A DNA stretch of 64,000 nt from a candidate division LCP-89 bacterium B3_LCP (GCA_005223185.1 NJBN01000001.1:441365-505364); one strand, 5' to 3'; counted from the first letter of the stretch, positions 1,560-31,889 are shown. The notes: generated by a model not told the origin, from the sequence alone. A program made the numbers and translations.

Positions 1560-1568
1560 GTTACAAAT

Positions 1569-1619: not shown

Positions 1620-1767
1620 ACTATCCCAGTAGGGCAGGGAGCCTGTCCTGCTCTGGCGGGACGCTTCCCCCGCCTTTTTACTATCCGGTCCCGCCCATGC
1701 GGGATCGTTTTTTTCAGCCTATCTAAAAAAGAGGAAACCTTGCATGCGAGCCCAAGAAGATATTCTC

Positions 1768-1796
1768 TTGACTTGAACTGTTTGAAGCATTATATT
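1768..1796 (+). promoter_or_regulatory. Sigma-70-like promoter TTGACT-N17-TATATT
   Basis: ttgact at 1768-1773, 17-nt spacer, tatatt at 1791-1796. The ORF-track start at 1795 lies inside the -10 box, so the signal-peptide ATG at 1927 is preferred. Confidence 0.5.
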
Positions 1797-1926
1797 GTGG
1801 TCGCGGATATTCAAATGGATATGTCTGCAGGAATTGAATTGGGGTGCAATCAAATTCATCTCATGGGGGGATGGAGCATGGCTGCGCCTTTTATTATCTC
1901 ACCGAAACCGCTTAAGCACAATCGAA

Positions 1927-4110: not shown

Positions 4111-4152
4111 CTAAAAAAAGTGGCAGTTTTAATACAATCAGGAGGTAATAAA

Positions 4153-6723
4153 ATGAAGCGCATAAGTTTAATCCTGGGGTTCAGCCTGTTATTGGCATGG
4201 GCGGGTTTAGCGAGCGCTGAGACAATTTGGGATATACAGTACACCACCGATCCCGGTGGAGCTTCCCCCTTAATCGGGCAGGAAGTAACCATAACAGGAT
4301 TCGTAACCGCTGAAGGATACGCCTTCGGCGGCGCCTACTACTTCGTGCAGGATGACGATCCCCCCTGGGCTGGTATCAGGGTTGACGATTCCGACCGAGC
4401 TGTTGCTCAGAATGATGAAGTACAGGTGACAGGAACTGTCGCGGAAGTTGACGGCATGACCGTAATACAAAATGTCACCTCATTCGCGATCATAAGCATC
4501 GGCAACACCTTGTACGATCCCATGGTGATCAACACTGGATTAATCGCCGATGAGACTCTTGAAGGATGCCTCATGCAGGTGGAGAGCGTAACCGTTACCA
4601 TCCCCGGCGCGGGACTGGAGGATTTCCAGGTGGACGACGGATCTGGTGTATGCTGGATCGGCGATGAGGCTGAATGGTACCACTGGCCCGAGATGGGCGA
4701 AGCTTTCGATTCCATTGCCGGTGTAGTGAACTATGTTGACGCTGAATTCAAACTCGAACCCCGCCTTACACGGGATATTACACTACCGGGACGAGTTCGC
4801 ACACTACAGTGGGTACAGCAAGTGCGCTACAGCGATCTGATGATACTTGAAGACCAATCATATGCCTTGGATGATACAGTAGAAGTTGTAGGGCTAGTCA
4901 CTTGCCCAACTGGTTTGTGCTATGCAGGATCTGGTGTAAAATTCACCTACACAGATGTTCATGGAGGCCCCTGGTCGGGTATTATGTCTTATGATCAAGA
5001 TCCAACCACGTTCCCAACTCTTCTGATAGGAGATTCGGTTAGAGTCATTGGTCGCATCGCTGAATATTTATCACCACCCTCCTATATGACGGAGCTGTTC
5101 ATAACCGAACCCATTGAAATCCCGGCGATGGGCATCGATATCCCGGAAGAGCCATTATTGACTACCGGCGATCTCCGCTGGCCCACTACCGCAGAACAGT
5201 GGGGAACAGTGATGGTGAAAGTGCAGAATGCAGTGGTTATCAACAATACTTACCAATATGGTGAGTGGGGCATCGATGATGGATCAGGTGAAATTCGAGT
5301 TGACGATGATTCCGATTCATTGTCCAATCCCATATACAACTTCGTCAGACCACCTGTAGGTACTATGATATCAGAGGTACGTGGTTGGGTTTACAACCAT
5401 TACGGTAGTTATCTTCCGGATTCGAGTACATACAAAATTGAGCCCTTAGGTGAGAGTTATATCACCATAGGCTCAGGTCCGCCAGATATCCTCAATGTTA
5501 CCCGTGATCCAGCAGTTCCTCAACAGGCTGATCCGGTAAACCTTGTCTGCGAAATCACCGATAATTCCGTAGTTTTAAGTGCAGCGGTGCATTACAGCGT
5601 CAATGGTGGCGCTTACCAGACGGCAGATTTGGCGTTTTCCGGAGGATTCTACTGGGAAGGGGAAATACCCGAAGCGTTCACCGATGATTGGATCGATTTC
5701 TTCATCACCGCCGAAGATGATTCCGGCAATGTGGGGATGGAACCGGTTGACACAACCTTTGAAATGTTCTGCTACCCGGTCACTGCCGGTGACGTTCTCG
5801 CCATCGAGGACGTACAGTACACCCCCTGGCCCTCCGGTAATAGCCCCTTTAATAGCTATGAAGTAACCATTGAGGGCGTGGTCACCGGTGATACCGCTTT
5901 CAATAACAACTGGGAAGCTTACGCACTGCAGGATGCAGACGCCCCATGGTCGGGGATATGCGTATCCTGGATCACGGAGGAGCTCTATCGTGATCAGGGA
6001 GTGCAGATAACGGGAATCGTAACTGAAGCAGATCCGGACTATACATACAAGTGGGGCGGTTTAACCAAGTTGATAGATTGCAGCGATGTACAGGTTATCG
6101 GAAGTGGCGTTGCTACACCACTGGAAGTTACCACCTGGGATCTTTCTGAGGCTAACCCGGAGGTGGAGTCTTATGAAGGCGTTCTGGTCACGGTGAGGAA
6201 CGTTGAGGTAACTTCGGCTAACCCATACGATTGGTCCATCAATGACGGCAGCGGCGACTGCCTGATGGATGATGACGCTAGCAATTTGTATGAAGTTCTC
6301 TTCGGTTTCGTGCAGGCGGGATCCACCTTCGAACGAATTACCGGTGTGTTTGTATACAGCTTCGGTACGTACAAAATTGAACTTCGCGATGAAGGTGACT
6401 TTGAAGGATTCTTGGGCGTTGAGAAGGATAAGCCTGCTTCAGCTTTCGACTTCAGCCTGGAACCGAACTTCCCCAACCCGTTTAATGCTTCGACCACCAT
6501 CAGCTATACGCTGCCGCAGGTACAACCGGTGAAGCTGATAATCTACAACCTGATGGGGCAGCAGGTACGAACTCTGGTCAATGGTGTACAGACTGCTGGA
6601 AAGCATAACACCATATGGAACGGAAATGATAACTTCGGTCAGACAGTATCATCGGGTGTTTACATCTACCGGATAAAAACCGGAGATTTCCTGGAACATC
6701 ATAAAATGGTGCTCCTCAAGTAA
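4153..6723 (+). CDS. Secreted T9SS cargo protein with three or more OB-fold-like repeats of the kind found at the N-terminus of extracellular nucleases
   Basis: RBS aggagg 7 nt before ATG 4153; signal peptide MKRISLILGFSLLLAWAGLASA. Repeated IxDIQY…G..VT..G.VT…Y.QD….GI.V modules. C-terminal Por_Secre_tail (FPNPFNASTTISYTLP…YIYRIKTGDF…KMVLLK). Confidence 0.6.
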   Translation: MKRISLILGFSLLLAWAGLASAETIWDIQYTTDPGGASPLIGQEVTITGFVTAEGYAFGGAYYFVQDDDPPWAGIRVDDSDRAVAQNDEVQVTGTVAEVDGMTVIQNVTSFAIISIGNTLYDPMVINTGLIADETLEGCLMQVESVTVTIPGAGLEDFQVDDGSGVCWIGDEAEWYHWPEMGEAFDSIAGVVNYVDAEFKLEPRLTRDITLPGRVRTLQWVQQVRYSDLMILEDQSYALDDTVEVVGLVTCPTGLCYAGSGVKFTYTDVHGGPWSGIMSYDQDPTTFPTLLIGDSVRVIGRIAEYLSPPSYMTELFITEPIEIPAMGIDIPEEPLLTTGDLRWPTTAEQWGTVMVKVQNAVVINNTYQYGEWGIDDGSGEIRVDDDSDSLSNPIYNFVRPPVGTMISEVRGWVYNHYGSYLPDSSTYKIEPLGESYITIGSGPPDILNVTRDPAVPQQADPVNLVCEITDNSVVLSAAVHYSVNGGAYQTADLAFSGGFYWEGEIPEAFTDDWIDFFITAEDDSGNVGMEPVDTTFEMFCYPVTAGDVLAIEDVQYTPWPSGNSPFNSYEVTIEGVVTGDTAFNNNWEAYALQDADAPWSGICVSWITEELYRDQGVQITGIVTEADPDYTYKWGGLTKLIDCSDVQVIGSGVATPLEVTTWDLSEANPEVESYEGVLVTVRNVEVTSANPYDWSINDGSGDCLMDDDASNLYEVLFGFVQAGSTFERITGVFVYSFGTYKIELRDEGDFEGFLGVEKDKPASAFDFSLEPNFPNPFNASTTISYTLPQVQPVKLIIYNLMGQQVRTLVNGVQTAGKHNTIWNGNDNFGQTVSSGVYIYRIKTGDFLEHHKMVLLK

Positions 6724-6757
6724 AAAAAAGCAGGGGCTGTTCCTAAAATAAAATAAT

Positions 6758-6800
6758 GTCATTGCGAGGAATCCCGCCACTGCGGGATGACGAAGCAATC
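6758..6800. repeat. GTCATT-type palindromic repeat (gtcattgcgagg…gacgaagcaatc)
   Basis: Imperfect palindrome; related copies at 18637, 36581, 37828 (variant), 38125 and 38307. Confidence 0.6.
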
Positions 6801-6825
6801 TCTTAACACACAAAAGGTGACGAGA

Positions 6826-6872
6826 TCCCGTAGTCGAGGTCGCCTGCGCCCATGGTGTCCCTGACCCCGACA
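6826..6872. repeat. Palindromic repeat cccgtagtcgaggtcgcc…gtccctgaccccgacat
   Basis: Related copies at 36688-36718, 37931-37960, 38385-38414 and, reverse-complemented, near 55640. Confidence 0.6.
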
Positions 6873-6900
6873 TAAGAATAAAAATGTCATAACACATTTC

Positions 6901-8553
6901 ATGCGCAATCTCATCGTAACAATCTTACTGCTGCTGATCGTCTTCCTGTCCGGGTGCCAACAGGATCCCATCAATGCGGATGGAACTACTGGTGGCGGAG
7001 GGCAGGCGTCGGGTAACATCCCGCCGACTACCAATCTCTTCCTCTATCCTGATTCCACCGGATTAGATACCACTACTTCTGTATTGGAAGTGCACTGGTG
7101 GGGTCAGGATCCGGATGGCTGGGTGGTCGGATATTACGTACAGTGGGATTATTTCAGCACTAGTACCCTGGTGGATTCTGTCTGGATGACCTCGGAATAT
7201 GCCACCTTTTACTTACCCTTAGATTCAGCTTACGATGAGTTTGCGCTAAATGTGAACGCGGTGGATAACGCCGCTATATGGGACTGGCCCACAGACGGCA
7301 AAGTTGCCGAAGCCGAAGGCAGCGAAGGTGAAGTTACCGCAGGCATTCAGGATTATGTCGAGTACGAAGCGTTTATCGACAATGGATCGGATGCGGACGT
7401 TTACGATTCCGGCGATAGTCTGCTCTGGGCTGGTAACATTGAAGGGATTCAGACTCAGACTGGCACCGATCTGGAGCCGCTCTTCGGTGGTGATTTTTCA
7501 TTACATGGACTGCCACCCACGAACTCCGAGGGTGCCATCGATCCATTGGGAGATTCACTATTGTTTCGCATCAGGAATACCGCGCCGGTGGTGGAATTCC
7601 GCATTGAATCCAATCCCACGTTAACTCCCGGACAAGTTTATGGCACTTTCCCCACCCGCAGTTTCTTCTGGGAGGTAACCGATTTGGACGGCGAACAGAC
7701 CATAGATTCCTGTTTCTATATTCTCGATCCCGCTCCTGGCGATACCAATTGGGTGGGATTGCCAGGTACAGAGACGTCGGTAACACTGACTGATTTAGCC
7801 TACGATTACCATCGCTTCTTCCTGAAGGTGCAGGATATTGCCGGAGCTTACAGCCCGACCATCAGTTTCCCCGATTCCACGGACAGCTTCTGGGAAGTAC
7901 AGGAACCGATGGGTGATATTTTAATTGTGGATGATTATGCTCTTGATACACCTAATCAAGCTCTGAACCTCTATATCTCAATCTTTGATACTCTTTTTGG
8001 TCAGAATGAGTATTCAGTATGGGAAGTGGGGGAGAACCTACCATATTCAATGGGCGATGTTTTAGCAAACCTCAATTATTTCACCGAAGTGTTCTGGTAC
8101 TGTTTCCAGGGTTCTCCGCACTATGGGGAAGCTATGAGTGCCATTGCGAGTTTCCTTGAAAATGATGGTTCAATTCTTATCAGCGCTGCTCAGATCGATA
8201 CTTCTTCTAGTATTATTCCAATTGCAGATTTCGACAATGGCAATGCACGTATTTCATATCCAAATGGTTTATCGGCGATATCAGGAGATTGGCCTGACCT
8301 GATTGTTGAGCAGGGTAATATTTTTTCCTATGAAGTATCAGGATTTGAAGCTACAACCAATGGTGAGATGCTTTATGAATATGGTTCGGGTGTAATCTGG
8401 TTCAATGGTCCGCCACCTTCTTATATGGGGGTTGGTGTGCAGCGTATAGATGATCTGAATTTGGTTTTTATCGGCATGCCCTTGCACCTTCTCAACGGCA
8501 CCGGTACTTTGCCCGAGTTTTTCGACAAAGTATTCAACGAAGAATTTCAATAA
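6901..8553 (+). CDS. Lipoprotein of unknown function
   Basis: N-terminus MRNLIVTILLLLIVFLSGCQQDP has a lipobox (LSGC). No T9SS tail. Confidence 0.55.
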   Translation: MRNLIVTILLLLIVFLSGCQQDPINADGTTGGGGQASGNIPPTTNLFLYPDSTGLDTTTSVLEVHWWGQDPDGWVVGYYVQWDYFSTSTLVDSVWMTSEYATFYLPLDSAYDEFALNVNAVDNAAIWDWPTDGKVAEAEGSEGEVTAGIQDYVEYEAFIDNGSDADVYDSGDSLLWAGNIEGIQTQTGTDLEPLFGGDFSLHGLPPTNSEGAIDPLGDSLLFRIRNTAPVVEFRIESNPTLTPGQVYGTFPTRSFFWEVTDLDGEQTIDSCFYILDPAPGDTNWVGLPGTETSVTLTDLAYDYHRFFLKVQDIAGAYSPTISFPDSTDSFWEVQEPMGDILIVDDYALDTPNQALNLYISIFDTLFGQNEYSVWEVGENLPYSMGDVLANLNYFTEVFWYCFQGSPHYGEAMSAIASFLENDGSILISAAQIDTSSSIIPIADFDNGNARISYPNGLSAISGDWPDLIVEQGNIFSYEVSGFEATTNGEMLYEYGSGVIWFNGPPPSYMGVGVQRIDDLNLVFIGMPLHLLNGTGTLPEFFDKVFNEEFQ

Positions 8554-8586
8554 AAACGCAGGTATTTAAGGAAAACTACCAAAAAA

Positions 8587-11322
8587 ATGCAAAAAACCTG
8601 CAAAATAACGATATTTTTGTCCATTTTCGCGATTCTACTCCTTTCTGCAACTGCAGCTTGGGGCGGCGTTCTGCGCGGTGTGGTTACCAATGTGGATACC
8701 GGTGAACCTGTATCCGATGCCAATGTGACCATACCGGGAACGTACTTCGGAGCGGCTACCGATCTGAACGGAGCTTTCTACATCATGAACGTCCCGGCGG
8801 GAGCTTACGATGTACGCATAAGCTGCCTGGGCTACACCGAACAGATTATGGGTGGGATTGTTGTACCGCCCACCGGTGAAAAGCTGCTGAAGATAACGCT
8901 GAAGCCCACCCTGCTTTCCGCCGGACAGGAAGTGGTCGTGGTCGGGGAAAGACCATTGATAGATGTTGATGATACGGCATCGCGAACCCGGGTCGGTTCG
9001 GAAGAGATAGAGAACTTAGTGGTAGAAGACGTTGAGGATCTGCTGGCGAATCAACTGGGTGTGGTGAAGGAGAACAACGAAATCCACATTCGCGGCGGCA
9101 GGGCGGATGAACATCTCTACCGCATCGATGGTTTGGACATTAAGGATCCGATTTCCGGCGCAGGTTACGGCATCTATCTTTCCGCCGATGCGATTGAAGA
9201 GCTGGAAGTGATCACCGGCGGCTTCAATGCTGAGTACGGTCAGGCTATGTCCGGTGTCATCGATATAAAGACCAAGGAGGGCGGCGACCGGTATTCGGGT
9301 TCCATGAGCATTAAATCAGATAACTTCGGTTCGAACGTTCCCGTTGAAAACCAGAACATAAAGTCGCTGGAATTTTCGTTGGGGGGTCCCGATAAGCTTC
9401 TCACCAAAATGCTTCCCGGCGAAGGGAATATCTTCATCAACGGCTATGGGTTTGTGTCCGATACCTATCTTCCCCATGCGAACGATCTGGTTCCATACGA
9501 CAATGCCTATGATTTCTTAGCTCCTAACGAAGAGAATAACTGGTCTATATTGAGCAAGTACACCTGGTGGATGACTCCTGTGAGCAAACTGCAGTTTTCC
9601 TATGGACGGTCATTGCAAATAAACCAGGGATACTTTCAGCCTTTGATAGAGGATAAAATCTACTATCCGGAGAGTTACGGGAATATATTAGATAATTACA
9701 ACACCTTCACCTGGGAAGGAATTCAATCCAGCATCACCTATACTCAGACCCTTTCAGCCCGAGCGTTTTTTGAGATACAGTTAGGGCGGTTCTACAACCG
9801 CGTGCATTCCGCTCCTTACGGTTTCAATTACGATGATTCCACTTACGTCGTCGGTCAGCCTTTCGATTTAGGTCCCACCATCTACTTTTCCGATCCTTAC
9901 GGCAACATAATCACCAAAACCGGGGATGATCTGTACGACGTCGGGTACGGTTACTACTGGCATGACCATCATTCCGATACCTATTCAGTCAAGGGTGATT
10001 TCACCTTAAAAGCCGGTAAGAAACACACTATTAAAACCGGTATAGATCTGGAAACCACTGAACTGCAAATGCTTCATATCAATGACCCCTGGTTGGGTGT
10101 TGAACAGGGGCTTTTGGGCGGTGATTGGGATTCCTATAACGCCCATACAGCCGCCGCTGCATTGTACGTTCAGGACAAGATCGAATTTGAGGGGATGATC
10201 GCCAACGTGGGCTTGCGGTTTGATACCTGGTTCCCGGGCAAGTACATAGAAAACGCAGTAGCTGATCCCAACACTGTAGCCTTAACCGATGAAGCGCGAC
10301 AGTATTTCTACGACAACACTTTCGAGTTCCTGGGATACCGGGGTAAAGGCCATCTTTCGCCCCGGCTGGGGATCTCACATCCCATCACCGAAGGTGACGT
10401 TCTCTTTTTATCGTACGGACATTTTTCCCAACGTCCCAAGTACGCCTACGTTTATTCAAAACTGGGCAGTGGAACTCAGTCAACTTTCCAACTGTTCGGC
10501 AACCCCAATTTGGAACCCACCACAACTGTCGCCTACGAGATGGGCGTGCGGCATCGCTTCTCAGCGGACAGAACCATCGAGTTAGTGGCGTTCTACAAAG
10601 ATCTATTCAATTATGCGACTTCCTTCGAAATTCGCGACATAAACAGGGGTACGACTTACTACCAGTACTTCAATATAGATAACGCTCGTGTGCGGGGATT
10701 GGAAATGCGGTTGCGAGCCCGGTGGGAACGCATAACTGCCAGAATAGATGCCACTTACCAGATAGCTACGGGCAAATCGTCCAGCGCCACAGCCAATCTG
10801 CAGGCCGCCGCTGGTAACGTGCTTCTGCAGAATTCGACTCTGGGTGAATCCTATCTGAATTGGGATAGACCTATTCGGTTAGCTTTAGACCTGTATTACC
10901 GGGTCGGTCAGAACGATCACCCGAAACTCTTCGGGATCAGATTACCTTCCGATTGGGGAGCGTCCGTGCGCTGGGAGATTGAGTCAGGGAAACGGTACAC
11001 AACAGCCTTCCTGACGGAAACCGGCGACATTCAATACGATCCTGAGACCAACAATGCCTTGAGCGATCCCTGGAATACAGTCGATGCTAAAGTGTACAAA
11101 GATTTCCGTTTTGGAGGGGTGAGATACACCATCTTCGCGGAAGTGGAAAACCTCTTTAATTTCAAGCGTCCCAAGACTTTAAATTCCTTGACGGGTAGAG
11201 CGTTCGAACCAGGAGATCCATACCCTTTAACCTGGGAGAATAATTTAGGATATGTAACCTTAGATCCATCCAGATATGGTGAACCCAGAAAGATGATATG
11301 TGGGATGTCTGTTAAATTCTGA
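8587..11322 (+). CDS. TonB-dependent-receptor-like outer-membrane barrel with N-terminal carboxypeptidase-regulatory-like domain
   Basis: Signal peptide; CarbopepD_reg-like segment (GVVTNVDTGEPVSDANVTIPG…DLNGAFYIMNVPAGAYDVRISCLGY); plug-like motif (IHIRGGRADEHLYRIDGLDIKDP); long Tyr/Gly-rich C-terminal barrel ending in a terminal aromatic (…KF). Confidence 0.6.
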   Translation: MQKTCKITIFLSIFAILLLSATAAWGGVLRGVVTNVDTGEPVSDANVTIPGTYFGAATDLNGAFYIMNVPAGAYDVRISCLGYTEQIMGGIVVPPTGEKLLKITLKPTLLSAGQEVVVVGERPLIDVDDTASRTRVGSEEIENLVVEDVEDLLANQLGVVKENNEIHIRGGRADEHLYRIDGLDIKDPISGAGYGIYLSADAIEELEVITGGFNAEYGQAMSGVIDIKTKEGGDRYSGSMSIKSDNFGSNVPVENQNIKSLEFSLGGPDKLLTKMLPGEGNIFINGYGFVSDTYLPHANDLVPYDNAYDFLAPNEENNWSILSKYTWWMTPVSKLQFSYGRSLQINQGYFQPLIEDKIYYPESYGNILDNYNTFTWEGIQSSITYTQTLSARAFFEIQLGRFYNRVHSAPYGFNYDDSTYVVGQPFDLGPTIYFSDPYGNIITKTGDDLYDVGYGYYWHDHHSDTYSVKGDFTLKAGKKHTIKTGIDLETTELQMLHINDPWLGVEQGLLGGDWDSYNAHTAAAALYVQDKIEFEGMIANVGLRFDTWFPGKYIENAVADPNTVALTDEARQYFYDNTFEFLGYRGKGHLSPRLGISHPITEGDVLFLSYGHFSQRPKYAYVYSKLGSGTQSTFQLFGNPNLEPTTTVAYEMGVRHRFSADRTIELVAFYKDLFNYATSFEIRDINRGTTYYQYFNIDNARVRGLEMRLRARWERITARIDATYQIATGKSSSATANLQAAAGNVLLQNSTLGESYLNWDRPIRLALDLYYRVGQNDHPKLFGIRLPSDWGASVRWEIESGKRYTTAFLTETGDIQYDPETNNALSDPWNTVDAKVYKDFRFGGVRYTIFAEVENLFNFKRPKTLNSLTGRAFEPGDPYPLTWENNLGYVTLDPSRYGEPRKMICGMSVKF

Positions 11323-11392
11323 GATTGTGGGTGGCATGTTTCTGGCTCTGACGAAGTCAGGGACGAAGCATGTTTCCAATACAAATAATTTT

Positions 11393-12400
11393 ATGAATCT
11401 GAAGAACAATAAAAGCCTATTAGTACTGTTAACAGCCTTCTGGTTGATCCCTCATGCTGTCTTAGCATCAGGGCTTTTCCCTGTATTGGGAGCCGAGCGA
11501 GCTGGCACCACCTCCATGACCTTTCTGAAGATCGGCATCGGAGCTCGTGCGGAAGGATTAGGGGGAGGATTCGTGGCTATTGCGGATGATCCCTCTTGCC
11601 TCTTCTGGAATCCTGCTGGCGGAGTACGTATGCGGGGTAATTCTGGAGTGCTGTTCAATTACCTGCAATGGCCTGCCGATATACAATACAGTTACATAAG
11701 TTGGGTTCACAAGTTGAAGGAAACGTCCGCTATCGGTCTTTTTGCTGGTGCACTGACGCTTCCGAATTTTGAGGAAACGACGGTGACAAAACCTCACGGC
11801 ACGGGACGCTACGTTTCCTATGGCGATTTTCTGATCGGAGCGAGTTATTCACATTCGTTGACTCATCGGTTTTCCGTAGGCGTAACGCTGAAATATGCGC
11901 GTGAGAAGTTAGACGACCTTAATATGTCATCAATATTAGGAGATATCGGCACTCTCTATTTTACCGGTCTGCGCGATATACGTTTGGCAGCATCACTGCA
12001 GCATTTTGGGCCCAATATGCGCCCTGCTGGAAGCTATCAGGCTGATAACGGCAGCCAGCAGTACGAAGAATATCCACCTCCGACTCTGTTTCGTTTAGGA
12101 GTTGCCGGATCGGTGTACCAATCACAATTGCACCAGATTCTCCTGGCTCTGGCATTGGAACATCCCGTGGATAATGCTGAAAGCCTGTCCTTGGGTATGG
12201 AATATGTCGCCCATGATATAATTGTACTGCGCTGGGGACAAAAAATAAATAGGGGGGAAGAGAGCTGGGTAGCGGGCATTGGAGTTAGAATCCCTTATCA
12301 GGGGCTGCAGATTGAATTGGATTTTGCCTATACCAATTTTGGCAGGCTTGATTTGGCAAAGCGTTATTCCAGCCAAATATTTTATGGTGGTATGAACTAG
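11393..12400 (+). CDS. PorV/PorQ-family-like outer-membrane protein (putative T9SS component)
   Basis: Start moved to ATG 11393 (signal peptide MNLKNNKSLLVLLTAFWLIPHAVLA). N-terminal signature TTSMTFLKIGIGARAEGLGGGFVAIADDPSCLFWNPAG recalled as typical of PorV/PorQ-type barrels. Family assignment from memory only. Confidence 0.45.
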   Translation: MNLKNNKSLLVLLTAFWLIPHAVLASGLFPVLGAERAGTTSMTFLKIGIGARAEGLGGGFVAIADDPSCLFWNPAGGVRMRGNSGVLFNYLQWPADIQYSYISWVHKLKETSAIGLFAGALTLPNFEETTVTKPHGTGRYVSYGDFLIGASYSHSLTHRFSVGVTLKYAREKLDDLNMSSILGDIGTLYFTGLRDIRLAASLQHFGPNMRPAGSYQADNGSQQYEEYPPPTLFRLGVAGSVYQSQLHQILLALALEHPVDNAESLSLGMEYVAHDIIVLRWGQKINRGEESWVAGIGVRIPYQGLQIELDFAYTNFGRLDLAKRYSSQIFYGGMN

Positions 12401-12419
12401 GAACAATACAGGATAATAC

Positions 12420-13727
12420 GTGAGATCACCCGAACTAAATAACGAGAGTAATCAGAAAGTACTTGGCATAGTTGCGATTGTGTTTATTCTGGTGGTAATC
12501 AGCGCTTGCGGTACCAAGATGGAGCTACCGTCATCGCCTGCCAGTGTCTCTTTTGGATCTGGAGATACGACGTACATTCATCTGGCGCCTGATTGGACAA
12601 TTAACAACGGGATACCCTTAAATGAACCATGTGATATAGTTGTGGGCCCGGATGGTTATGTGTTCGTGGTAGATCGCGGAAATGAGAGAATCGCAGTTTT
12701 CGACCGCGTTGGCAATTCCATCGAAACCGGATGGACTGACGACCTGGCTGATCTAGATGGATTGGAAGGAATCGGTTCGGGAGATGTAATCGAAGCAATC
12801 GGACAGGATGAGAAGCTCAACCTGTTTATGGTGGCTGGAGGTCCTACGGTTTGGTACTGGAATCAATATATTAATGAAGTCGGCGTGGAATCAGTTCTCG
12901 ATTATTTTGTCGTTTTGGACACCCTTGAACTTGATACGACAAATGCGTCATTCACCGAGTTTGTAGAGTTGGAGACGCAGACGCCGGACAGGTACGTCAT
13001 AATAGACTTTATATTTTCCTACGATCCAGACAGAATCGATTCTGTTTATGCCCCTAAGGTCTTCTATCAGGATCCCAACGGTCTATCCAAGTATCGTGGC
13101 GTTGCCGGAGGGCCGGATGAAACGGTGTACATCACTGATCTAACAGACCGTGTCAGCCGTTTGACTTTGAATTATCACAATATGGTGATGCTGAACAACG
13201 GATTTGTTGCATATACCTATTACGGCGACTTCGAGAGAGATATAGCTGTTCACGGAACCGGCATGGGGACCACTATCGATCCGGCAGGCATTTACGTTCA
13301 GGTACAAGGTGGACAGCATTACATCTATTTCAGTCAAACCGAACCCAATTTCATGGTGCAGAAGATAAGGGAAGAAGGTGTAGGAAATTTCTTCTCAGCA
13401 TTTAGTGCCAACACCGACATTATGGAACTGGAGCGCTTCTCCCGACCTATGGACATCTGGGTTGCTGAACAGTATTTAGGCAGCAACTGGGTCTTCGTAG
13501 CAGATACCGATTCCAACCGAGTGCAGGTGTTCAATCCAGTGGGCGATTTTCTGATGTACGCTGGCGGGCGGAAAACAAGCATTGCCGATCCTGAAATATT
13601 CGATGAGCTTGTCCTACCGGAAGGTGTAGCGCATTTCGAAGGTACACTCTATGTAGCGGATACTGGTAATAACCGCATCGTGCGTTATGCGTTATCTACC
13701 GATGTTGAAAATATTCCCGGACTTTAA
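12420..13727 (+). CDS. NHL-repeat (beta-propeller) lipoprotein
   Basis: GTG start with agga 6 nt upstream; lipobox VISACG; NHL-like repeats (RIAVFDRVGN, RVQVFNPVGDF, TLYVADTGNNRIVRY). Confidence 0.5.
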   Translation: MRSPELNNESNQKVLGIVAIVFILVVISACGTKMELPSSPASVSFGSGDTTYIHLAPDWTINNGIPLNEPCDIVVGPDGYVFVVDRGNERIAVFDRVGNSIETGWTDDLADLDGLEGIGSGDVIEAIGQDEKLNLFMVAGGPTVWYWNQYINEVGVESVLDYFVVLDTLELDTTNASFTEFVELETQTPDRYVIIDFIFSYDPDRIDSVYAPKVFYQDPNGLSKYRGVAGGPDETVYITDLTDRVSRLTLNYHNMVMLNNGFVAYTYYGDFERDIAVHGTGMGTTIDPAGIYVQVQGGQHYIYFSQTEPNFMVQKIREEGVGNFFSAFSANTDIMELERFSRPMDIWVAEQYLGSNWVFVADTDSNRVQVFNPVGDFLMYAGGRKTSIADPEIFDELVLPEGVAHFEGTLYVADTGNNRIVRYALSTDVENIPGL

Positions 13728-13842
13728 TTTCTATAGGTAAGTCCCGATTTAACAATCTGATGGGAAGCACAATCCGCCATGGGTTATTTTTTTCCTGAGC
13801 TGTTATCAAGAATAAAATATCTTACTTATTGAAAAATAATGC

Positions 13843-13871
13843 TTGCATTGCCCCAAATAAATTTGCATATT
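13843..13871 (+). promoter_or_regulatory. Sigma-70-like promoter TTGCAT-N17-CATATT
   Basis: ttgcat 13843-13848, 17-nt spacer, catatt 13866-13871, about 45 nt upstream of ATG 13915. Confidence 0.45.
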
Positions 13872-13914
13872 ACTTATCTAATGTAATTTGAAGTTGCGAA
13901 TTTAGAATATAGCT

Positions 13915-15516
13915 ATGCGCCTGCAAAGAATAACGCTGATTGTAATCGTTCTTGTGCTTTCGATTCCATGTTGGGCTAACCAACTGCAGATAGTCCATTT
14001 CGATATCGGGCAGGGGGATGCCACCCTGATCTGGTCGCCTTCAGGACAGACCATGCTTGTGGATGCCGGATGGGCGTCCGAACCGGATGACATTCGCCTC
14101 TGGATGCAATCTCACGGTATCAACGACTTAACCTATACTCTGGCAACTCACTACCACGCCGATCACATCGGTGAATTCCTGGACCTCTATAATTCGGGTT
14201 ACCTGCCTGACATAGCTTATGACCGCGGCGATAACCCTGGATATACCACCCAGACCTATTATAACTACATCGCTGCCGCAGCGCCTGTAAGACAGACGAT
14301 CGCTCCGGGCGAGATTGTTGATTTGGGTGGGGGCGTTACCGCTACAGCGGTCTGTGTTCAGGGTAACCTGATGAATGGACAATCGATATCGATCCCAACA
14401 TCCAGTTCCTATGAAAATGAACGTAGCATCTGCCTTTTAGTTGAGTACCATAATTTCCGCTACGTTGTATCTGGTGATCTGAGGGGTTCAGGTTCTTATG
14501 AGTTAGAGTCACTCTGTTCGGGGATTATTGGTGATATCGACGTCTTTGAAGTGAATCATCATGGGTCTTATTCTTCGACCAGCAATACATGGTTGAATAA
14601 CCTGCAGGCGGAAGCTGCGGTAGTCTCTCTGTCTGATAACAATAGCTATGGTTACGTGCACACTGAGGTTATTAGTCGGGTTAACAGTAATTATTATCTG
14701 CAGACCTTCTATCACACCGAAGAGGGGCATAATCTGAGCACGAAATCGGTCGTGGTTAACGATCATGTAATTCTGGAAACAAACGGTCTGACTTCCTACA
14801 CGATTGATGGTGATCTGTACGACTTGGGTCCTGATATATTCGTGGATGTCTGGGTCGATCCCATGACTGCATTACCGATTCCGACTTCCGGTGGCACACT
14901 TTTCTGGAATTTGATGGTACAGAATCTGGAAACGAGCACCATACCGGTCAACATCAAATTCTGGCTGGAAGTACCCAATTATGGTCCCTATACGATGATA
15001 GACCTACCCGGTTTCGATCTTCCACCTCTACCCACTGGAGCTGAACGCGAAAGGCAGATTGACATACCATCTGGCGCTCCGGCGGGAATGTACGAGCTTA
15101 TAGGGGAGATAACGGATGAAGATGATCTGATTCTCTATGCCTGCGACCGCGACACCTTCTATAAAGAAGGAACGGATGGAGGCGATTGGTTCGGTTACTT
15201 AAACCCGTATGGTTCAAGTGATTTCCAGATGGATTCTGATGTATCCCAGAGGCGATCTGCCGCTATCATCTCTGCCTACCCGATGCCCTTCAACCCGGAA
15301 GTTACTATCGGGTTTTCACTGGCGGAAATGGGGATGGTTCAACTTGACGTCTTCGATTTGGGTGGACGAAAGGTCGCTACCCTGTATGAGGGTAACCTTT
15401 CCCAAGGTGTGTATTACTTCGACTGGAATGCACAATCACAACCGACCGGAGTGTATTTCGCAAGGTTAACGGGTGATGGTGTAAACAGCATCAAGAAACT
15501 CGTTTATCTTAAATAG
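13915..15516 (+). CDS. Secreted MBL-fold metallo-hydrolase (ComEC-type lactamase_B domain) with T9SS C-terminal domain
   Basis: Signal peptide; VHFDIGQGDATLIWSP…MLVDAGW…THYHADHIG motif set of ComEC-like MBL domains; C-terminal Por_Secre_tail (YPMPFNPEVTIGFSLA…YFARLTGDG…KKLVYLK). Confidence 0.6.
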   Translation: MRLQRITLIVIVLVLSIPCWANQLQIVHFDIGQGDATLIWSPSGQTMLVDAGWASEPDDIRLWMQSHGINDLTYTLATHYHADHIGEFLDLYNSGYLPDIAYDRGDNPGYTTQTYYNYIAAAAPVRQTIAPGEIVDLGGGVTATAVCVQGNLMNGQSISIPTSSSYENERSICLLVEYHNFRYVVSGDLRGSGSYELESLCSGIIGDIDVFEVNHHGSYSSTSNTWLNNLQAEAAVVSLSDNNSYGYVHTEVISRVNSNYYLQTFYHTEEGHNLSTKSVVVNDHVILETNGLTSYTIDGDLYDLGPDIFVDVWVDPMTALPIPTSGGTLFWNLMVQNLETSTIPVNIKFWLEVPNYGPYTMIDLPGFDLPPLPTGAERERQIDIPSGAPAGMYELIGEITDEDDLILYACDRDTFYKEGTDGGDWFGYLNPYGSSDFQMDSDVSQRRSAAIISAYPMPFNPEVTIGFSLAEMGMVQLDVFDLGGRKVATLYEGNLSQGVYYFDWNAQSQPTGVYFARLTGDGVNSIKKLVYLK

Positions 15517-15654
15517 AGTGAGTTTACAGGTAAACAATCCATCTTGTGATTTCTTAATGCGATTCTCATAATGGACTAACAAATCATCAGTAGCTTATCT
15601 TACGATGAAATAACTAAAAAGAAAAACTATGAACCAAACAGAACATGAAGGAGG

Positions 15655-18549
15655 ATGGTTATGAAAAATGGAAAACTACTTTGGTTGTCAATTCTAATGG
15701 TCGGCTTCATTGCTTTCACCGCTTCTGCGGATGTGGTCATCAACGAATTGTACTACGATCACGTTGGCGGCGATACTGATCATGAGTTCATTGAATTGTA
15801 CAATAATGGCGGCAGTGACGTAGATCTCACTGGCTGGCAGATCCAGTGGGGTGGTACCGATTATACCTACGGCACCTATGATTTCCCCTTTGGAACCACC
15901 ATTTACGCAGGCGACTACCTGCTGGTTGGCGGTGCTTTAACTGCCAGTGATTTCGGCGTAACACCCGACTTGATCAATGCGTTCAACTGCCAGAATGCTG
16001 GCAGCGCCACTGATGCAGTACGGCTTTTCAACCTGACGGATTATCATGACACCTGTCCGTATGATTGGCCCAACACGAATAATCTGGAAGGAGATCCCTA
16101 CGGATCTGGCGCAGCGGATTCACTGCAGTGCACCGTTGATGTCGCGTCAGGTTATAGTCTTTCTCGCGTGACTGTCGGTGTCGACAACAATCTGGCCACT
16201 GACTGGGAAGATCTGGATACACCCACACCAACTGCATCTTCATATACCTTGGTTGTCAGCGATATTGGCGACATTCGTGTGAATGATGCAAACGGTGAAC
16301 CCCTGTACGTGGATTCACTGGTTACCATCACTGGAATCATCACCTGTGCCGAAGAATTAGGCAGTAGCGGCCCGGCTTATATGTATGACAACACCGGCGC
16401 GATTGCTGTTTATGATGGAACCGTCACTACTTCCGGTGTGGCCATCGGCGATAGCGTCATTGTGACCGGTTGGGTAGGATTTTACGCCGGCTTGACTGAG
16501 ATCGTAGACGAACCGACGTCAGGCACACCGGATGTGGCTTTCCAGATCGTCTCTACTGGTAATGATGTGACGCCGATAGAAACAGTAATAACGGATATCG
16601 ATGAGGACATGGAAGCTTATCTTGTTCGCATCAACGGTTGTACATTTGTAGAGACAGGGCTTTTCACAGCCAGTACAGTGCACCACGCCTATGTTGGTAC
16701 TGATACCATAGCTATCTACATCGATTCCAGTACCGATATCCCCGGCGAACCTATCCCCATAGGCGAATGTGACATAGTCGGCCAGGTGGGTCAATATGAT
16801 AACACCAGCCCCTATTTTGATGGTTACCAGGTAATCCCACGAACGATTGCTGATATTATCACGGGCGGTGTTGCTGGTCCAACCATCGATGACACAGAAC
16901 CGATTCCATACCTGCCGGATGACATGGAATCCGTCGTTATCAATACCATGATATATGATGACATAGCGGTCAGTTCAGCCTATGTTTACTACGATGCTGG
17001 TGCGGATGATTGGGTTGCGTTGGAAATCTTCGATGACGGTCTGCACAACGACGGAGCCGCCGGCGACAGCATTTACGGCAACACTATCCCGGGTCAGACC
17101 GCAGGTACCGGTGTGAACTTCTACATCGAAGCAACCGATAACGAAGCGAACACTACCTACGATCCACCAGATGCCCCGACGAGCTACTACTTCTATGAGC
17201 ATCATGACTACTCGAACGTCACGGCTATCGCAACGGTACGCGAAGCTGATACCACCGGCTATCCCATCAATATAGACGGGCTTTATACAGTCGAAGGATA
17301 TGTCTCGGCTGCTGACGAGTTCGGTTACGCGGGTCCTGCTCATATCCAGAGTGACCCGGATGGCGGCGATGGTATCGCAGTATACGATAATGAAGTGGAA
17401 AATTACGGTTGGGCTATCGGCGACTACGTCAAGGTGACCGGCTGGGTGGCATTCTACAACGGATTGACACAGATAGTGGATGCCCCCTACAATTCGAGTT
17501 ACAACCCGATTGTAGAAATTAACGCCTCAGGATTCGATATCACTCCGACAGTCATTGGTGACCTCGATGATATCGGTGAAGACGATGAATCCCTGCTGGT
17601 TGAACTCAGAGGGGTGCGCTTTACTGAAACAGGAACATTCGCGGCTTCTACCAATTACTGGGTAACTGACGGCGCCGATTCTGCTCAGGTGCGGATCGAC
17701 TATGACACCAACATACCGGGTACAACTATTCCCGAAGATCCAGTGACCGTCATAGGTGCGATGGGGCAGTACGATTACAGTTCACCGTACTTCTCCGGAT
17801 ACCAGATTCTGCCGCGCTTCGATACCGACATCTACACCCCCCCCCTGTACATCACTGTGATCCCGACTGGACCACCTGTGGTGATCCCGGTGGGTGGTGG
17901 CAGCTTCGAATACAACGTCGATCTGTACAATAACACAGCTACAGCTCAGAATATCGATATCAACCTGATCGCTGAGCTACCCAATGGGAACTACTACTAC
18001 TTCACCCCAACACCGATCAACGTGACCCTTCCAGCCGGACTGCACGCCAACCGCTTGAAGGATCGCAATATCCCGGGTGGCGCCCCAGAAGGTATCTACT
18101 CATACCGCATTACCATGGAAGATCGGATCACAGGTGAAGTTCTCACTTCCGATGGAATGCCCTTCGAAAAGACTGCTACTGATGGCGGCGGTGAATACGT
18201 CGATAACTGGGATGGCCACTGGTTGACCGATTGGATGTGGGAAGAGATCAATCCGGAACTGGACGCCGGCATGGGAATGCTACCAGAGGAATACGCGTTG
18301 GATCAGAATTATCCCAACCCATTCAACCCGGCTACCAACATCAGTTACTCACTGCCTCAGTCGAGCTACACACAATTGCAGATCTACAACCTCCGTGGAC
18401 AGTTAGTTGCCACCGTGGTTGACGGATTCCGCAATGCCGGTTACCACGAAGTAACCTTCGATGCTTCCGGACTGGCTTCCGGGCTGTATATCTACCACCT
18501 GCAAGCTGGTGATTTCGTTGACAGCGGCAAGATGATGCTGATGAAGTAG
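15655..18549 (+). CDS. Secreted lamin-tail-domain (LTD) protein with duplicated OB-fold-like modules and T9SS C-terminal domain; ExeM/NucH-like architecture without a recognisable catalytic domain
   Basis: RBS ggagg; signal peptide; LTD signature VVINELYYDHVGGDTDHEFIELYNNGGSDVDLTGWQIQW; two internally duplicated modules (…GAIAVYDGTVTTSGVAIGDSVIVTGWVGFYAGLTEIVD… and …GIAVYDNEVENYGWAIGDYVKVTGWVAFYNGLTQIVD…); C-terminal Por_Secre_tail. Confidence 0.6.
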   Translation: MVMKNGKLLWLSILMVGFIAFTASADVVINELYYDHVGGDTDHEFIELYNNGGSDVDLTGWQIQWGGTDYTYGTYDFPFGTTIYAGDYLLVGGALTASDFGVTPDLINAFNCQNAGSATDAVRLFNLTDYHDTCPYDWPNTNNLEGDPYGSGAADSLQCTVDVASGYSLSRVTVGVDNNLATDWEDLDTPTPTASSYTLVVSDIGDIRVNDANGEPLYVDSLVTITGIITCAEELGSSGPAYMYDNTGAIAVYDGTVTTSGVAIGDSVIVTGWVGFYAGLTEIVDEPTSGTPDVAFQIVSTGNDVTPIETVITDIDEDMEAYLVRINGCTFVETGLFTASTVHHAYVGTDTIAIYIDSSTDIPGEPIPIGECDIVGQVGQYDNTSPYFDGYQVIPRTIADIITGGVAGPTIDDTEPIPYLPDDMESVVINTMIYDDIAVSSAYVYYDAGADDWVALEIFDDGLHNDGAAGDSIYGNTIPGQTAGTGVNFYIEATDNEANTTYDPPDAPTSYYFYEHHDYSNVTAIATVREADTTGYPINIDGLYTVEGYVSAADEFGYAGPAHIQSDPDGGDGIAVYDNEVENYGWAIGDYVKVTGWVAFYNGLTQIVDAPYNSSYNPIVEINASGFDITPTVIGDLDDIGEDDESLLVELRGVRFTETGTFAASTNYWVTDGADSAQVRIDYDTNIPGTTIPEDPVTVIGAMGQYDYSSPYFSGYQILPRFDTDIYTPPLYITVIPTGPPVVIPVGGGSFEYNVDLYNNTATAQNIDINLIAELPNGNYYYFTPTPINVTLPAGLHANRLKDRNIPGGAPEGIYSYRITMEDRITGEVLTSDGMPFEKTATDGGGEYVDNWDGHWLTDWMWEEINPELDAGMGMLPEEYALDQNYPNPFNPATNISYSLPQSSYTQLQIYNLRGQLVATVVDGFRNAGYHEVTFDASGLASGLYIYHLQAGDFVDSGKMMLMK

Positions 18550-18606: not shown

Positions 18607-18636
18607 AAAGGCGGCCGTCTGGCCGCCTTTTTTATT
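18607..18636. terminator. Rho-independent terminator between convergent genes
   Basis: aaaggcggcc-gtct-ggccgcc followed by tttttt: 7-bp GC stem, 4-nt loop, T6. Confidence 0.7.
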
Positions 18637-18821: not shown

Positions 18822-19616
18822 TTAAGGTAAGCTGATACGCTCTATACTCAGAGCTTTACCCGTTTCCTGGTTAATAGAAACGAGCACGGCGTTCATGCGG
18901 ATGTTATCGTGTGCCATCTGATAGCGTTGGGGAACACCGCCGATGAAGCGTTGCAGTGCAACTTTCTTATCCAGACCGATTACGGAATCGAACGGTCCCG
19001 TCATCCCCGCATCGGAGATGTATGCCGTTCCTTCGGGGAGAATTCGTTCATCTGCGGTTTGCACGTGCGTATGAGTCCCAATCACCGCTGAAACCATGCC
19101 GTCCAGATACCAGGCTAATGCCTGTTTTTCTGCTGTGGCTTCAGCGTGTATATCGACGATGATCAGAGGGGTCTTCTTTCTCAGTTGTTCAACTTCCTTT
19201 TTCCCCCTACGGAAGGGACAGTCGATGGGGTACATAAAGGTTCGCCCCTGCAGGTTAAGTACGGCGATTTCCCCACCTTTGGATAATGCGTAAACACCTG
19301 ATCCAGAGCCAGGGCTTCCGTCAGGGTAGTTCAGGGGGCGTAATAGTGTAGTCTCATCATCTAAGAGTCTACGTCCTTTGTGGTGATCCCAGATATGATT
19401 GCCGCTGGTGATCACATCGATACCCACCTGCCGAAACACGGAGAATTCCGAAGGAGTGATACTCTTACCTTCATGAGCATTTTCCCCGTTGGCGATGCAG
19501 AAATCCACGTTATATTGGCGCAGAAGAGAAGATAGAAAACGGGAGGTTATATCCAATCCCGGTTTGCCTACGATATCGGCTATGAACAGAACGTTGATCT
19601 TTGGTGATTTTGTCAT
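18822..19616 (-). CDS. ymdB: YmdB-family metallophosphoesterase (2',3'-cyclic-nucleotide phosphodiesterase-like)
   Basis: MTKSPKINVLFIADIVGKPG…IANGENAHEGKSIT…GIDVITSGNHIWDHH matches the YmdB/TIGR00282 pattern; lies directly downstream of rny as in Bacillus. Confidence 0.75.
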   Translation of the reverse strand: MTKSPKINVLFIADIVGKPGLDITSRFLSSLLRQYNVDFCIANGENAHEGKSITPSEFSVFRQVGIDVITSGNHIWDHHKGRRLLDDETTLLRPLNYPDGSPGSGSGVYALSKGGEIAVLNLQGRTFMYPIDCPFRRGKKEVEQLRKKTPLIIVDIHAEATAEKQALAWYLDGMVSAVIGTHTHVQTADERILPEGTAYISDAGMTGPFDSVIGLDKKVALQRFIGGVPQRYQMAHDNIRMNAVLVSINQETGKALSIERISLP

Positions 19617-29885: not shown

Positions 29886-29924
29886 TTGAGTAGAAAAATA
29901 TCGTGTAAAGTAGATGGAGTTGAA

Positions 29925-31850: not shown

Positions 31851-31889
31851 CTGGGAAAGAAAGTAGTACCTTCCTGTTTTGAGGTTCTT

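Follow-up and report, generated by a model that had tools for sequence, protein, structure and literature searches.

A phylum-spanning operon of type IX secretion cargo, a TonB-dependent transporter and a PorV paralogue in candidate division LCP-89, with a possible role in nucleic acid uptake

Background

A 64,000-nucleotide stretch of the genome of candidate division LCP-89 bacterium B3_LCP (the window, to whose full length all coordinates refer; features lie on the + strand unless stated otherwise) carries at positions 4153-18549 a row of genes for secreted proteins that resemble pieces of extracellular nucleases. The question raised by this locus is what such proteins do together, given that two of them contain no recognizable catalytic domain. 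The studied interval is the 3' seven-eighths of an eight-gene unit that starts one gene earlier, at position 1927, and its genes are numbered here 1 to 8 in that order. The new part is an undescribed, phylum-spanning operon holding gene 2, while the cargo proteins add new members or variants to domain families already known.

Results and discussion

A six-gene core operon shared across phyla

By scanning an alignment of the transporter encoded by gene 4 against one genome per species, we matched at least 600 stretches, and transporter relatives are encoded in 579 of the 600 stretches listed. Six-frame open reading frames (ORFs) of the best 80 loci were searched with the window proteins and with a hidden Markov model (HMM) of the OB module described below; all counts out of 44 refer to those of the 80 loci that have enough flanking sequence. 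The core order, namely gene 1, a cargo protein of the system for type IX secretion (T9SS) with OB modules, a lipoprotein, a TonB-dependent transporter (TBDT), a PorV paralogue and an NHL-repeat lipoprotein, is kept exactly in 37/44 loci, and the conserved unit occurs in KSB1, Marinimicrobia, Fidelibacterota and other phyla, Caldithrix-labelled metagenome-assembled genomes (MAGs) among its carriers. The gene-1 family, the OB cargo, the lipoprotein and the PorV paralogue are all found around the transporter in 43/44 loci, and the NHL protein in 40/44. The OB cargo has three modules in 22 loci, two in 8 and four in 8, and the neighbourhoods of the gene-2 family compared across phyla are alike. 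The genes for the metallo-beta-lactamase (MBL) and lamin-tail domain (LTD) proteins, genes 7 and 8 of LCP-89, were found in just 1/44 loci. Based on these counts of gene content and order, the true unit is a six-gene, multi-phylum operon, and genes 7 and 8 are additions of the LCP-89 lineage. No published description of this operon was found in the literature on T9SS, TonB, PorV and extracellular DNA, on Marinimicrobia or on Caldithrix.

In LCP-89, the genes between 1927 and 18549 plausibly form one transcription unit, since the strong terminator-like hairpins of the region are confined to its two ends, a promoter-like site precedes gene 1 and the next gene is convergent. Two of these hairpins lie at 1655-1707 (stems of 6 and 9 pairs, of which 6 and 7 are G-C, each followed by a T run), and the strongest one of the region is at 18607-18630 (10 pairs, 7 G-C, T run). 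The sigma-70-like promoter candidate TTGACT-17-TATATT at 1768-1796, just upstream of gene 1, has 10 of 12 consensus matches; promoter-like sites across the region are not enriched relative to shuffled sequences, and this site is a mere consensus match. The unit is preceded by a gene for a beta-helix T9SS cargo protein (24-1559) and followed by ymdB on the opposite (-) strand (18822-19616).

The sequence-only reading had presented the interval as a block of cargo proteins built from nuclease-associated accessory domains, and both parts of this description hold in a restricted sense. Three genes do encode cargo, but four non-cargo genes lie inside the interval (a lipoprotein, the TBDT, a PorV/PorQ-family barrel and the NHL lipoprotein), and the operon is centred on the TBDT and its PorV paralogue, with gene 2 as a fixed component of the six-gene core and genes 7 and 8 as lineage-specific members. 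As to the nuclease association, the OB module precedes PLD-like and Endonuclease_1 domains in other proteins (PLD-like in P0025 and P0036, Endonuclease_1 in P0082). The ComEC-type MBL domain, on the other hand, is not an accessory domain, because its ComEC counterpart is a Mn-dependent nuclease (PMC8579336) and the metal-motif positions are occupied in the LCP-89 protein.

Additional genes recur downstream of the NHL gene in the Marinimicrobia clade (L028-L048; for example, L048 15081-16055, L037 16623-17402 and L030 17181-17741). They encode a 325-amino-acid protein that has no family match and a small outer-membrane beta-barrel protein (16 loci each), a NUDIX hydrolase (11 loci) and a TPR protein (7 loci).

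Cargo proteins with tandem OB modules

The prediction that genes 2, 7 and 8 all encode T9SS cargo was borne out: each product has an N-terminal signal peptide, as read from the sequence, and a type A C-terminal sorting domain (CTD), with TIGR04183 scores of 38.4, 37.8 and 27.7 bits, respectively, against a cut-off of 23. Gene 2 (4153-6723) encodes 856 amino acids and is 100% identical to CEE37_01790. Its signal peptide is followed by OB module 1 (residues 20-216; 4210-4800), OB module 2 (residues 219-431; 4807-5445), an Ig-like or CBM56-like beta-sandwich spacer (residues ~440-545; 5470-5787), OB module 3 (residues 546-751; 5788-6405) and the CTD (6469-6720), which also has PF18962 and FlgD_ig matches. 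The spacer has a weak, below-cut-off match to PF22184 CBM_56 (E 2.6e-4) and aligns with the 'choice-of-anchor X' region of the gene 8 product.

At least three repeats similar to the N-terminal OB fold of extracellular nucleases had been noticed in the gene 2 product, and profile-profile self-comparison of a 63-member family alignment finds them, with E values of 1e-35 to 1e-38 that lie far outside chance, as residues 24-209, 236-430 and 550-750. The similarity to nucleases was likewise recovered as a match to the N-terminal OB part of the NCBIfam model ExeM_NucH_DNase (positions 37-108 of 546, E 4.3e-12). An HMM of module 1 recovers residues 20-216, 219-431 (E 1.9e-21; hhalign E 1e-38) and 546-751 (E 2.5e-38; hhalign against module 1, E 6e-37) in the gene 2 product and residues 199-406 and 511-732 in that of gene 8. 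The two proteins share a paralogous 'OB - Ig-like - OB' core (gene 2 residues 219-667, BLASTP E 1e-13). The gene 2 family comprises 635 proteins at E <= 1e-5. Among the matches listed, its relatives come from Marinimicrobia/Fidelibacterota, KSB1 and Calditrichota; the cross-phylum ones are 41-47% identical over 97-100% of the length, and for closer orthologues the identity is 59-71%. Pfam and NCBIfam scans detected no catalytic domain in the gene 2 product, and a sequence search of PDB gave no match.

A carbohydrate-binding or Ig-like fold of the repeats would have contradicted their assignment as OB folds, and for module 1 it was the OB fold that emerged. The AlphaFold2 model of residues 20-216, based on a 43-sequence alignment, has a predicted local distance difference test score (pLDDT) of 93.1 and a predicted template modelling score (pTM) of 0.89 and is all-beta, with two five-stranded halves, that is, a tandem of two OB barrels. 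The top near-full-length Foldseek matches are the HIN-200 domains of MNDA, p204 and IFI16 and the AB domains of Teb1 (158-199 columns, E 6e-5 to 4e-4). Fold searches returned exclusively nucleic-acid binders as structural neighbours of module 1, double-stranded DNA (dsDNA)-binding HIN-200 domains included, with no carbohydrate-binding module, Ig fold or sugar-binding OB among them. The structure model together with these searches ruled out the identity of the repeats as carbohydrate-binding modules or Ig-like domains. Each module is thus read as a HIN-like pair of OB barrels, those other than the modelled module 1 by homology to it, which gives six OB folds in the gene 2 product and four in that of gene 8. 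The modules share with HIN-200 proteins (AIM2, IFI16, p202, p204, MNDA) two tandem OB folds and a length of ~190-200 amino acids (Foldseek E 7e-5 to 4e-4), but the identity is 8-14%, and the strongly acidic modules contrast with the basic HIN domains, which hold the dsDNA backbone electrostatically. The modules contain invariant residues of the W/E/D/Q type. With Pfam DUF5689 (PF18942) the gene 2 product scores 16.8 bits, below the gathering threshold of 28.6, and 10/43 orthologues of its module 1 match this family.

Gene 8 (15655-18549) encodes 964 amino acids and is 100% identical to CEE37_01820. Its product consists of an LTD (residues 22-~195), an OB module (199-406), the Ig-like choice-of-anchor X region (410-510), a second OB module (511-732), a beta-sandwich spacer (735-880, also delimited as 716-880) and the CTD (886-964). 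All three features read from its sequence were reproduced. The lamin-tail signature corresponds to Pfam LTD (PF00932) at residues 22-126 (62.6 bits, cut-off 34.3, E 5.4e-17), with a weak direct match to lamin A/C Ig-fold structures (E 0.02-0.06). The duplicated OB-like modules are those found by the module HMM, and DUF5689 is matched twice as well, while neither Pfam nor NCBIfam reveals a catalytic domain. In contrast to gene 2, the gene 8 product is a member of DUF5689 (74.4 bits, cut-off 28.6, E 1.6e-20; the better of the two stretches covers profile positions 2-217 of 217), and it also matches the OB part of the ExeM/NucH model (E 5.2e-8).

Orthologues of gene 8 with 55-70% identity are accompanied by the full gene row in L003 and L001 and by the row minus the MBL gene in L004; accordingly, the MBL gene is present in L001/L010 and L003 and not in L004. 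In L002, L005 and L006 the LTD-OB orthologues are solitary in unrelated contexts, and in a locus from Marinimicrobia (L008) LTD-OB cargo flanks the operon on both sides.

The building blocks of these proteins are those of the ExeM/NucH/Xds nucleases (NF033681), which combine an LTD, a YhcR-like two-OB region and an EEP (Exo_endo_phos) catalytic domain. The modules have the two OB folds of the YhcR-like region, which in ExeM is essential for nuclease activity, the LTD being partly dispensable (PMC6085458). In the LCP-89 locus, however, the blocks are on separate polypeptides, and the products of genes 2 and 8 score 45.7 and 32.2 bits against a cut-off of 300, covering model positions ~27-108 only. 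Neither contains PF03372, the EEP domains of the window being in the proteins encoded at 29886 and 33164, and the anchor is a T9SS CTD rather than the GlyGly-CTERM/rhombosortase signal. Genes 2 and 8 were therefore rejected as ExeM/NucH nucleases, as both lack the EEP domain and stay far below the cut-off.

A stand-alone ComEC-type MBL protein

Gene 7 (13915-15516) encodes a candidate phosphodiesterase or nuclease with an MBL domain (residues ~23-262), a beta-sandwich spacer (302-450) and a CTD (455-533). Its ComEC-like character, noticed earlier, is evident from a match to TIGR00361 ComEC_Rec2 (positions 424-651, E 6.8e-20) and to solved ComEC MBL structures (30bt, E 2.5e-13; 9ic4, E 1.7e-12). 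In ComEC, the C-terminal domain acts as a Mn-dependent nuclease whose motif II reads HxDxDH and whose motif III contains Asn (PMC8579336). Residues 5-255 of the gene 7 product align with the solved ComEC MBL domains through DIGQGD, HYHADH, an Asn in the motif III region, SGD and HHGS, and in the alignment to 30bt and 9ic4 the metal-binding positions of MBL motifs I-V are all occupied.

The gene 7 product thus shares DxGQGD, motif II, SxD and HHGS with the ComEC MBL domain (PMC8579336; PMC12455585; PDB 30bt, 9ic4, 9vc6), but it is T9SS-secreted, has neither the competence channel nor the ComEC OB domain, and its motif II reads HxHxDH (HYHADH) instead of HxDxDH. The whole protein scores 70.8 bits with TIGR00361 against a cut-off of 190, matching at MBL positions only and having no transmembrane domain; an identification as ComEC itself was rejected, as the MBL domain alone is present. 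The canonical HxHxDH motif, the lack of a transmembrane channel and the score below the ComEC cut-off point to a stand-alone secreted enzyme of the ComEC MBL type that is probably active.

A beta-sandwich spacer of ~150 amino acids before the CTD, which has no family assignment, is common to the products of gene 7 (14818-15264) and gene 8 (17800-18294). By eye, it seems to be present also in the protein encoded at 33164-36571.

Lipoproteins, transporter, PorV paralogue and the gene-1 family

Gene 4 (8587-11322) encodes a TBDT in which a CarboxypepD_reg domain at the N-terminus is followed by a plug and a beta-barrel (Pfam TonB_dep_Rec_b-barrel 3.9e-27, Plug 4.8e-11, CarbopepD_reg_2 3.5e-14). 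Its profile matches in PDB are PhuR, CirA and PirA, and its identity across phyla is 44-47%. A conserved stretch before the plug, QEVVVVGE, appears to resemble the SusC-type TonB box. Directly upstream of the transporter in all loci of canonical order is gene 3 (6901-8553), which encodes a conserved lipoprotein of 550 amino acids (lipobox FLSGC) that has no family assignment; a Pfam scan of 44 orthologues gave weak Y_Y_Y or fn3 matches alone, and a PDB search with the family gave chance-level Ig-like matches alone. Gene 6 (12420-13727) encodes an NHL-repeat beta-propeller lipoprotein with the lipobox VISAC (PF01436 NHL, E 6.4e-12).

The product of gene 5 (11393-12400, with ATG 11393 as the probable start) is an outer-membrane barrel belonging to the PorV/PorQ family, as judged by 175.4 bits with NF033709 PorV_fam (cut-off 90). 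It is a distinct paralogue, since its scores are below both equivalog cut-offs (63.7 vs 250 bits for PorV and 73 vs 220 bits for PorQ). PorV and PorQ of Porphyromonas bind cargo proteins, PorU and PorZ, in each case at the C-terminal domain. Gene 5, by contrast, sits in the transporter operon and not with the T9SS core genes, and it may serve as a dock for the cargo.

Gene 1 (1927-4110; NCBI CEE37_01785) encodes 727 amino acids from ATG 1927 and has no family assignment. The protein combines a beta-supersandwich (galactose-mutarotase-like) domain, Asp-rich DxNGNG repeats and a C-terminus similar to PorZ and to T9SS CTDs. CEE37_01785 starts in the database at TTG 1795 (771 amino acids), and the window ORF from 1795 is 100% identical to it. 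This start is probably 44 codons too far upstream and ATG 1927 the better one, because a signal-peptide-like helix follows it and the resulting length fits that of homologues with 700-750 amino acids. The family search with gene 1 gave 1543 matches, none of them with a Pfam domain; a Pfam scan of 46 orthologues and a PDB sequence search with the family profile gave no match.

Distant paralogous triads that lack the OB cargo, consisting of a TBDT, a gene-1-like protein of 1100-1250 amino acids and a PorV-like protein, are repeated two to three times in tandem in L082, L084 and L089 (also L085-L088), and the TBDTs of the triads in L082-L089 have 28-31% identity. This tandem repetition suggests a general architecture made of a TBDT, a PorV paralogue and supersandwich T9SS cargo, similar to that of polysaccharide utilization loci (PULs), and the OB version would be one specialization of it.

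Recruitment of nuclease-type genes

The remaining ORFs in the flanks of the surveyed loci were clustered; the top clusters, which are antisense shadow ORFs, were discarded. The clustering uncovered T9SS cargo of 570-600 amino acids with an EEP domain, an LTD and a CTD in 13 loci. In 10-11 of these 13, which belong to Marinimicrobia/Fidelibacterota, its gene is located directly upstream of gene 1, in the same orientation and separated from it by ~0-150 bp, the arrangement in L058 being looser. The operon-linked EEP domain matches the catalytic half of ExeM_NucH (positions 284-545, E 3.7e-9) and the membrane nuclease MnuA. Since this EEP+LTD cargo adjoins the OB-cargo operon and its EEP domain matches the ExeM_NucH catalytic half, the ExeM-type parts (LTD, OB, EEP) are spread over adjacent operon genes in this clade.

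In the LCP-89 window, a T9SS cargo protein with EEP (Exo_endo_phos) is encoded at 29886-31754, unlinked and 11 kb away, and is a candidate catalytic partner; its paralogue with an extra N-terminal beta-helix is encoded at 33164-36571. Both proteins (11-15 kb downstream) fall into one broad subfamily with the EEP+LTD cargo heading the operons and show weak similarity to ExoIII. The EEP domain of the first has E 6e-26 to the EEP domain of L056 and 23% identity over 304 amino acids to the operon-linked one of L041. Nuclease-type genes have been attached to the operon independently in two lineages, LCP-89 (MBL and LTD-OB) and Marinimicrobia/Fidelibacterota (EEP+LTD).

A proposed mechanism of nucleic acid capture and import

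The best reading of these data, to which we assign a probability of roughly 45%, is a machine displayed by the T9SS that captures, cuts and imports nucleic acid. The six core genes would supply a complex at the cell surface, made up of the TBDT, a dedicated PorV-family barrel, two lipoproteins and two T9SS cargo proteins, those of genes 1 and 2. The T9SS would export the cargo proteins, and the PorV paralogue of the operon would keep them at the surface beside the transporter through their C-terminal domains. Extracellular nucleic acid would be captured by the OB modules. In LCP-89 it would be cut by the MBL protein of gene 7, aided by the gene 8 product and possibly by the two EEP cargo proteins at 29886 and 33164, while in Marinimicrobia/Fidelibacterota the ExeM-like EEP+LTD cargo would do the cutting. 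The fragments would finally be taken inward by the TBDT, presumably for nutrition.

The closest precedent, one of two experimental systems found in the literature on DUF5689, is the ddbABCDEF locus of Bacteroides thetaiotaomicron, a member of the DNA-utilization loci of gut Bacteroidales, which encodes three nucleases, the TBDT DdbC and the DUF5689 protein DdbD and is needed for depletion of exogenous DNA; DdbD, modelled in complex with DdbC, is similar to a HIN domain bound to DNA, PDB 4JBM (bioRxiv 10.1101/2025.03.18.642099). The two systems have in common a TBDT with an extracellular DUF5689/HIN-like tandem-OB partner and a PUL-like logic: the OB cargo gene is two genes upstream of the TBDT gene in 37/44 loci, gene 8 encodes a DUF5689 member, and the HIN similarity reported for DdbD was reproduced by our fold search with module 1. 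Secreted nucleases, which belong to the ddb locus itself, are represented here by the candidate MBL and elsewhere by EEP+LTD cargo in 13 loci, most loci having none within 10 kb. The OB proteins of the present operon differ in being T9SS cargo with 2-3 modules and a CTD, whereas the DdbD type is a single-domain lipoprotein of the signal peptidase II (SPII) class; the nucleases are of the ComEC-type MBL or EEP+LTD kind, and the hosts are non-Bacteroidota phyla of the Fibrobacteres-Chlorobi-Bacteroidetes (FCB) group. The PorV paralogue, the supersandwich cargo, the NHL lipoprotein and the further lipoprotein are not among the components listed in the ddb description.

A similar pair is known from Riemerella anatipestifer, where the CarboxypepD_reg barrel RA0C_RS04915 and the DUF5689 protein RA0C_RS04920 are both essential for natural transformation and DNA uptake (PMC8459023). 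There too the partner of the DUF5689 protein is an outer-membrane barrel whose N-domain is carboxypeptidase-regulatory-like. That system, however, comprises two genes where the present one has six to eight, neither T9SS signals nor a PorV paralogue were reported for it, and it serves transformation, whereas competence genes were not seen near the LCP-89 locus.

The arrangement also recalls SusC/SusD PULs, in which a CarboxypepD_reg TBDT is encoded beside surface binding proteins and degradative enzymes in one operon. Here the role of binding protein falls to T9SS cargo, a PorV paralogue is part of the operon, the transporter scores 57.3 bits with TIGR04056 against 368 and in its N-terminal part only, and family scans of the neighbours of the transporter gave no SusD-family match. 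A SusC/SusD PUL proper is ruled out by this low SusC/RagA score together with the lack of SusD.

Several observations weigh against a machine for nucleic acid uptake. The modules are extremely acidic, with 3-10 K+R versus 30-37 D+E per ~200 amino acids, and the net charge of the mature proteins is -93 for gene 2 and -122 for gene 8. As HIN domains bind DNA via basic residues, nucleic acid could attach to these acidic modules only through bridging cations or local patches. Extreme acidity is common to all secreted proteins of the locus, and the nuclease-fused modules found elsewhere are acidic too, but less so. The likeness of the gene 4 transporter to DdbC and RA0C_RS04915 is one of architecture alone (CarboxypepD_reg, plug and barrel), and a TBDT of the same CarboxypepD_reg type, Oar, is reported to be required for protein secretion in Myxococcus (PMC6434023). 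The supersandwich fold of gene 1, the most conserved partner, mostly accompanies carbohydrate-active enzymes in solved structures. Most loci have no recognizable nuclease within 10 kb, the MBL being found in 1/44 loci, an EEP by the window-type query in 2/44 and EEP+LTD cargo in the 13 loci mentioned. A nutrient-uptake locus would not usually show such strict synteny or 40-50% identity across phyla, which could mean a core envelope function. Finally, adjacency to phosphate genes, which would have fitted phosphorus scavenging, was seen at L009 only (a pstSCAB-phoU cluster and a porin O/P gene at 1-5200, divergent upstream); it is not conserved in other loci, and a link to phosphate starvation was rejected.

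Alternative explanations

OB folds are also able to bind oligosaccharides. The OB modules and the supersandwich protein might therefore bind a glycan or another polymer, the operon being a T9SS-dependent analogue of a PUL; this we regard as unlikely, while giving it real weight. It would accommodate the high acidity and the invariant W/E/D/Q-type residues of the modules, the weak CBM_56 match in the gene 2 product and the PUL-like tandem triads of TBDT, gene-1-like and PorV-like genes that lack OB cargo. However, the structural neighbours of the module are all nucleic-acid binders, without a single sugar-binding OB, and its sequence relatives are linked to nucleases (ExeM/NucH, the fusions with PLD and Endonuclease_1, the DUF5689 proteins of DNA-uptake systems). 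Moreover, no glycoside hydrolase is found among the operon-attached genes, the recurrent same-strand additions being of nuclease type.

The same hardware could serve natural transformation, with the OB cargo and the TBDT taking intact DNA across the outer membrane for recombination instead of feeding. A like pair of a CarboxypepD_reg TBDT and a DUF5689 protein is essential for this process in R. anatipestifer (PMC8459023), and Sharan et al. derive the ddb loci from such a system (bioRxiv 10.1101/2025.03.18.642099). The absence of a nuclease from most loci and the high conservation likewise fit core DNA uptake. We nevertheless consider transformation distinctly unlikely: the MBL and EEP enzymes attached here and in the Marinimicrobia clade fit degradation better than preservation, ComEC, DprA and ComF were not seen in the 64 kb window or in the examined flanks, and no competence is known in these phyla.

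There is also a small chance that the six-gene core is an envelope or secretion machine, either a protein-exporting TBDT similar to Oar or a specialized T9SS attachment module, in which the OB proteins are structural or bind a surface polymer. The degree of conservation and synteny is more like that of core machinery than of nutrient loci, the precedent of Oar is reported from Myxococcus (PMC6434023), a PorV/PorQ-family protein is part of the operon and the C-termini of the cargo resemble PorZ and PorU. Such a machine leaves unexplained both the repeated recruitment of nuclease-type genes and LTD-OB proteins and the nuclease-associated OB module of the cargo, and the plug and barrel are like those of the ordinary importers PhuR, CirA and PirA.

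That the OB and LTD cargo are inert adhesins tethering the cell to extracellular DNA in sediment or biofilm, with an unrelated or loosely coupled transporter, would agree with the absence of a catalytic domain in the products of genes 2 and 8, with their multivalency (six or four OB folds) and with the solitary gene 8 orthologues in unrelated contexts, but it is the least probable of these explanations, because the OB cargo, unlike gene 8, is nearly never apart from the TBDT, the PorV paralogue and the lipoproteins (43/44 loci; order in 37/44), a linkage so rigid that it argues for one complex.

Other features of the window

T9SS cargo with a type A CTD is unusually plentiful in the window, with at least nine CTD proteins in 64 kb, the studied locus counted. 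In addition to those described above, cargo proteins are encoded at 24-1559 (the beta-helix protein upstream of the unit), 36874-37734 (a small protein), 51550-53151 (a subtilase of family S8) and 53350-55290 (a 646-amino-acid protein). An ORF at 31836-32705 has repeats of ~40 amino acids with the pattern YGGS..D.G.SVQQT.DGGYI, similar to a delta-60/DUF5122 propeller; it ends without a CTD and may be a truncated or frameshifted cargo gene.

Two patches, 40000-42000 and 44000-46000, have a low GC content (0.38 and 0.35) as compared with ~0.48 elsewhere in the window. Genes in or beside them encode a HEPN RiboL-PSP protein (40463-41050), a DUF3800 protein (44344-45447) and a helix-turn-helix (HTH) protein with an M78 (ImmA/IrrE-like) domain (46013-47542), and the patches look like small defence or mobile islets.

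Conclusions

In sediments and in the deep ocean, extracellular DNA holds large stocks of phosphorus, nitrogen and carbon, and its consumers and their machinery are poorly known (PMC8289736). If the locus indeed captures, cuts and imports nucleic acid, one conserved operon would mark the capacity for DNA foraging or DNA uptake in several abundant uncultured phyla, and the DNA systems of Bacteroidota that pair a TBDT with DUF5689 would extend to a far wider group. A new assembly of TBDT complexes would also be implied, in which T9SS cargo and a PorV paralogue replace SusD-type lipoproteins, and the unannotated gene-1-type protein family would gain its first functional handle. In a more speculative extension, which we think doubtful but worth stating, the six-gene core would represent an unrecognized, phylum-spanning class of uptake machines, a T9SS counterpart of SusCD with PorV-docked cargo; its OB version would be the main importer of extracellular DNA in Marinimicrobia/Fidelibacterota, KSB1, Calditrichota and LCP-89, and the OB-less triads would be sister systems for other substrates. 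Even with a ligand other than DNA, this rigidly conserved operon would be an unstudied core feature of these phyla.

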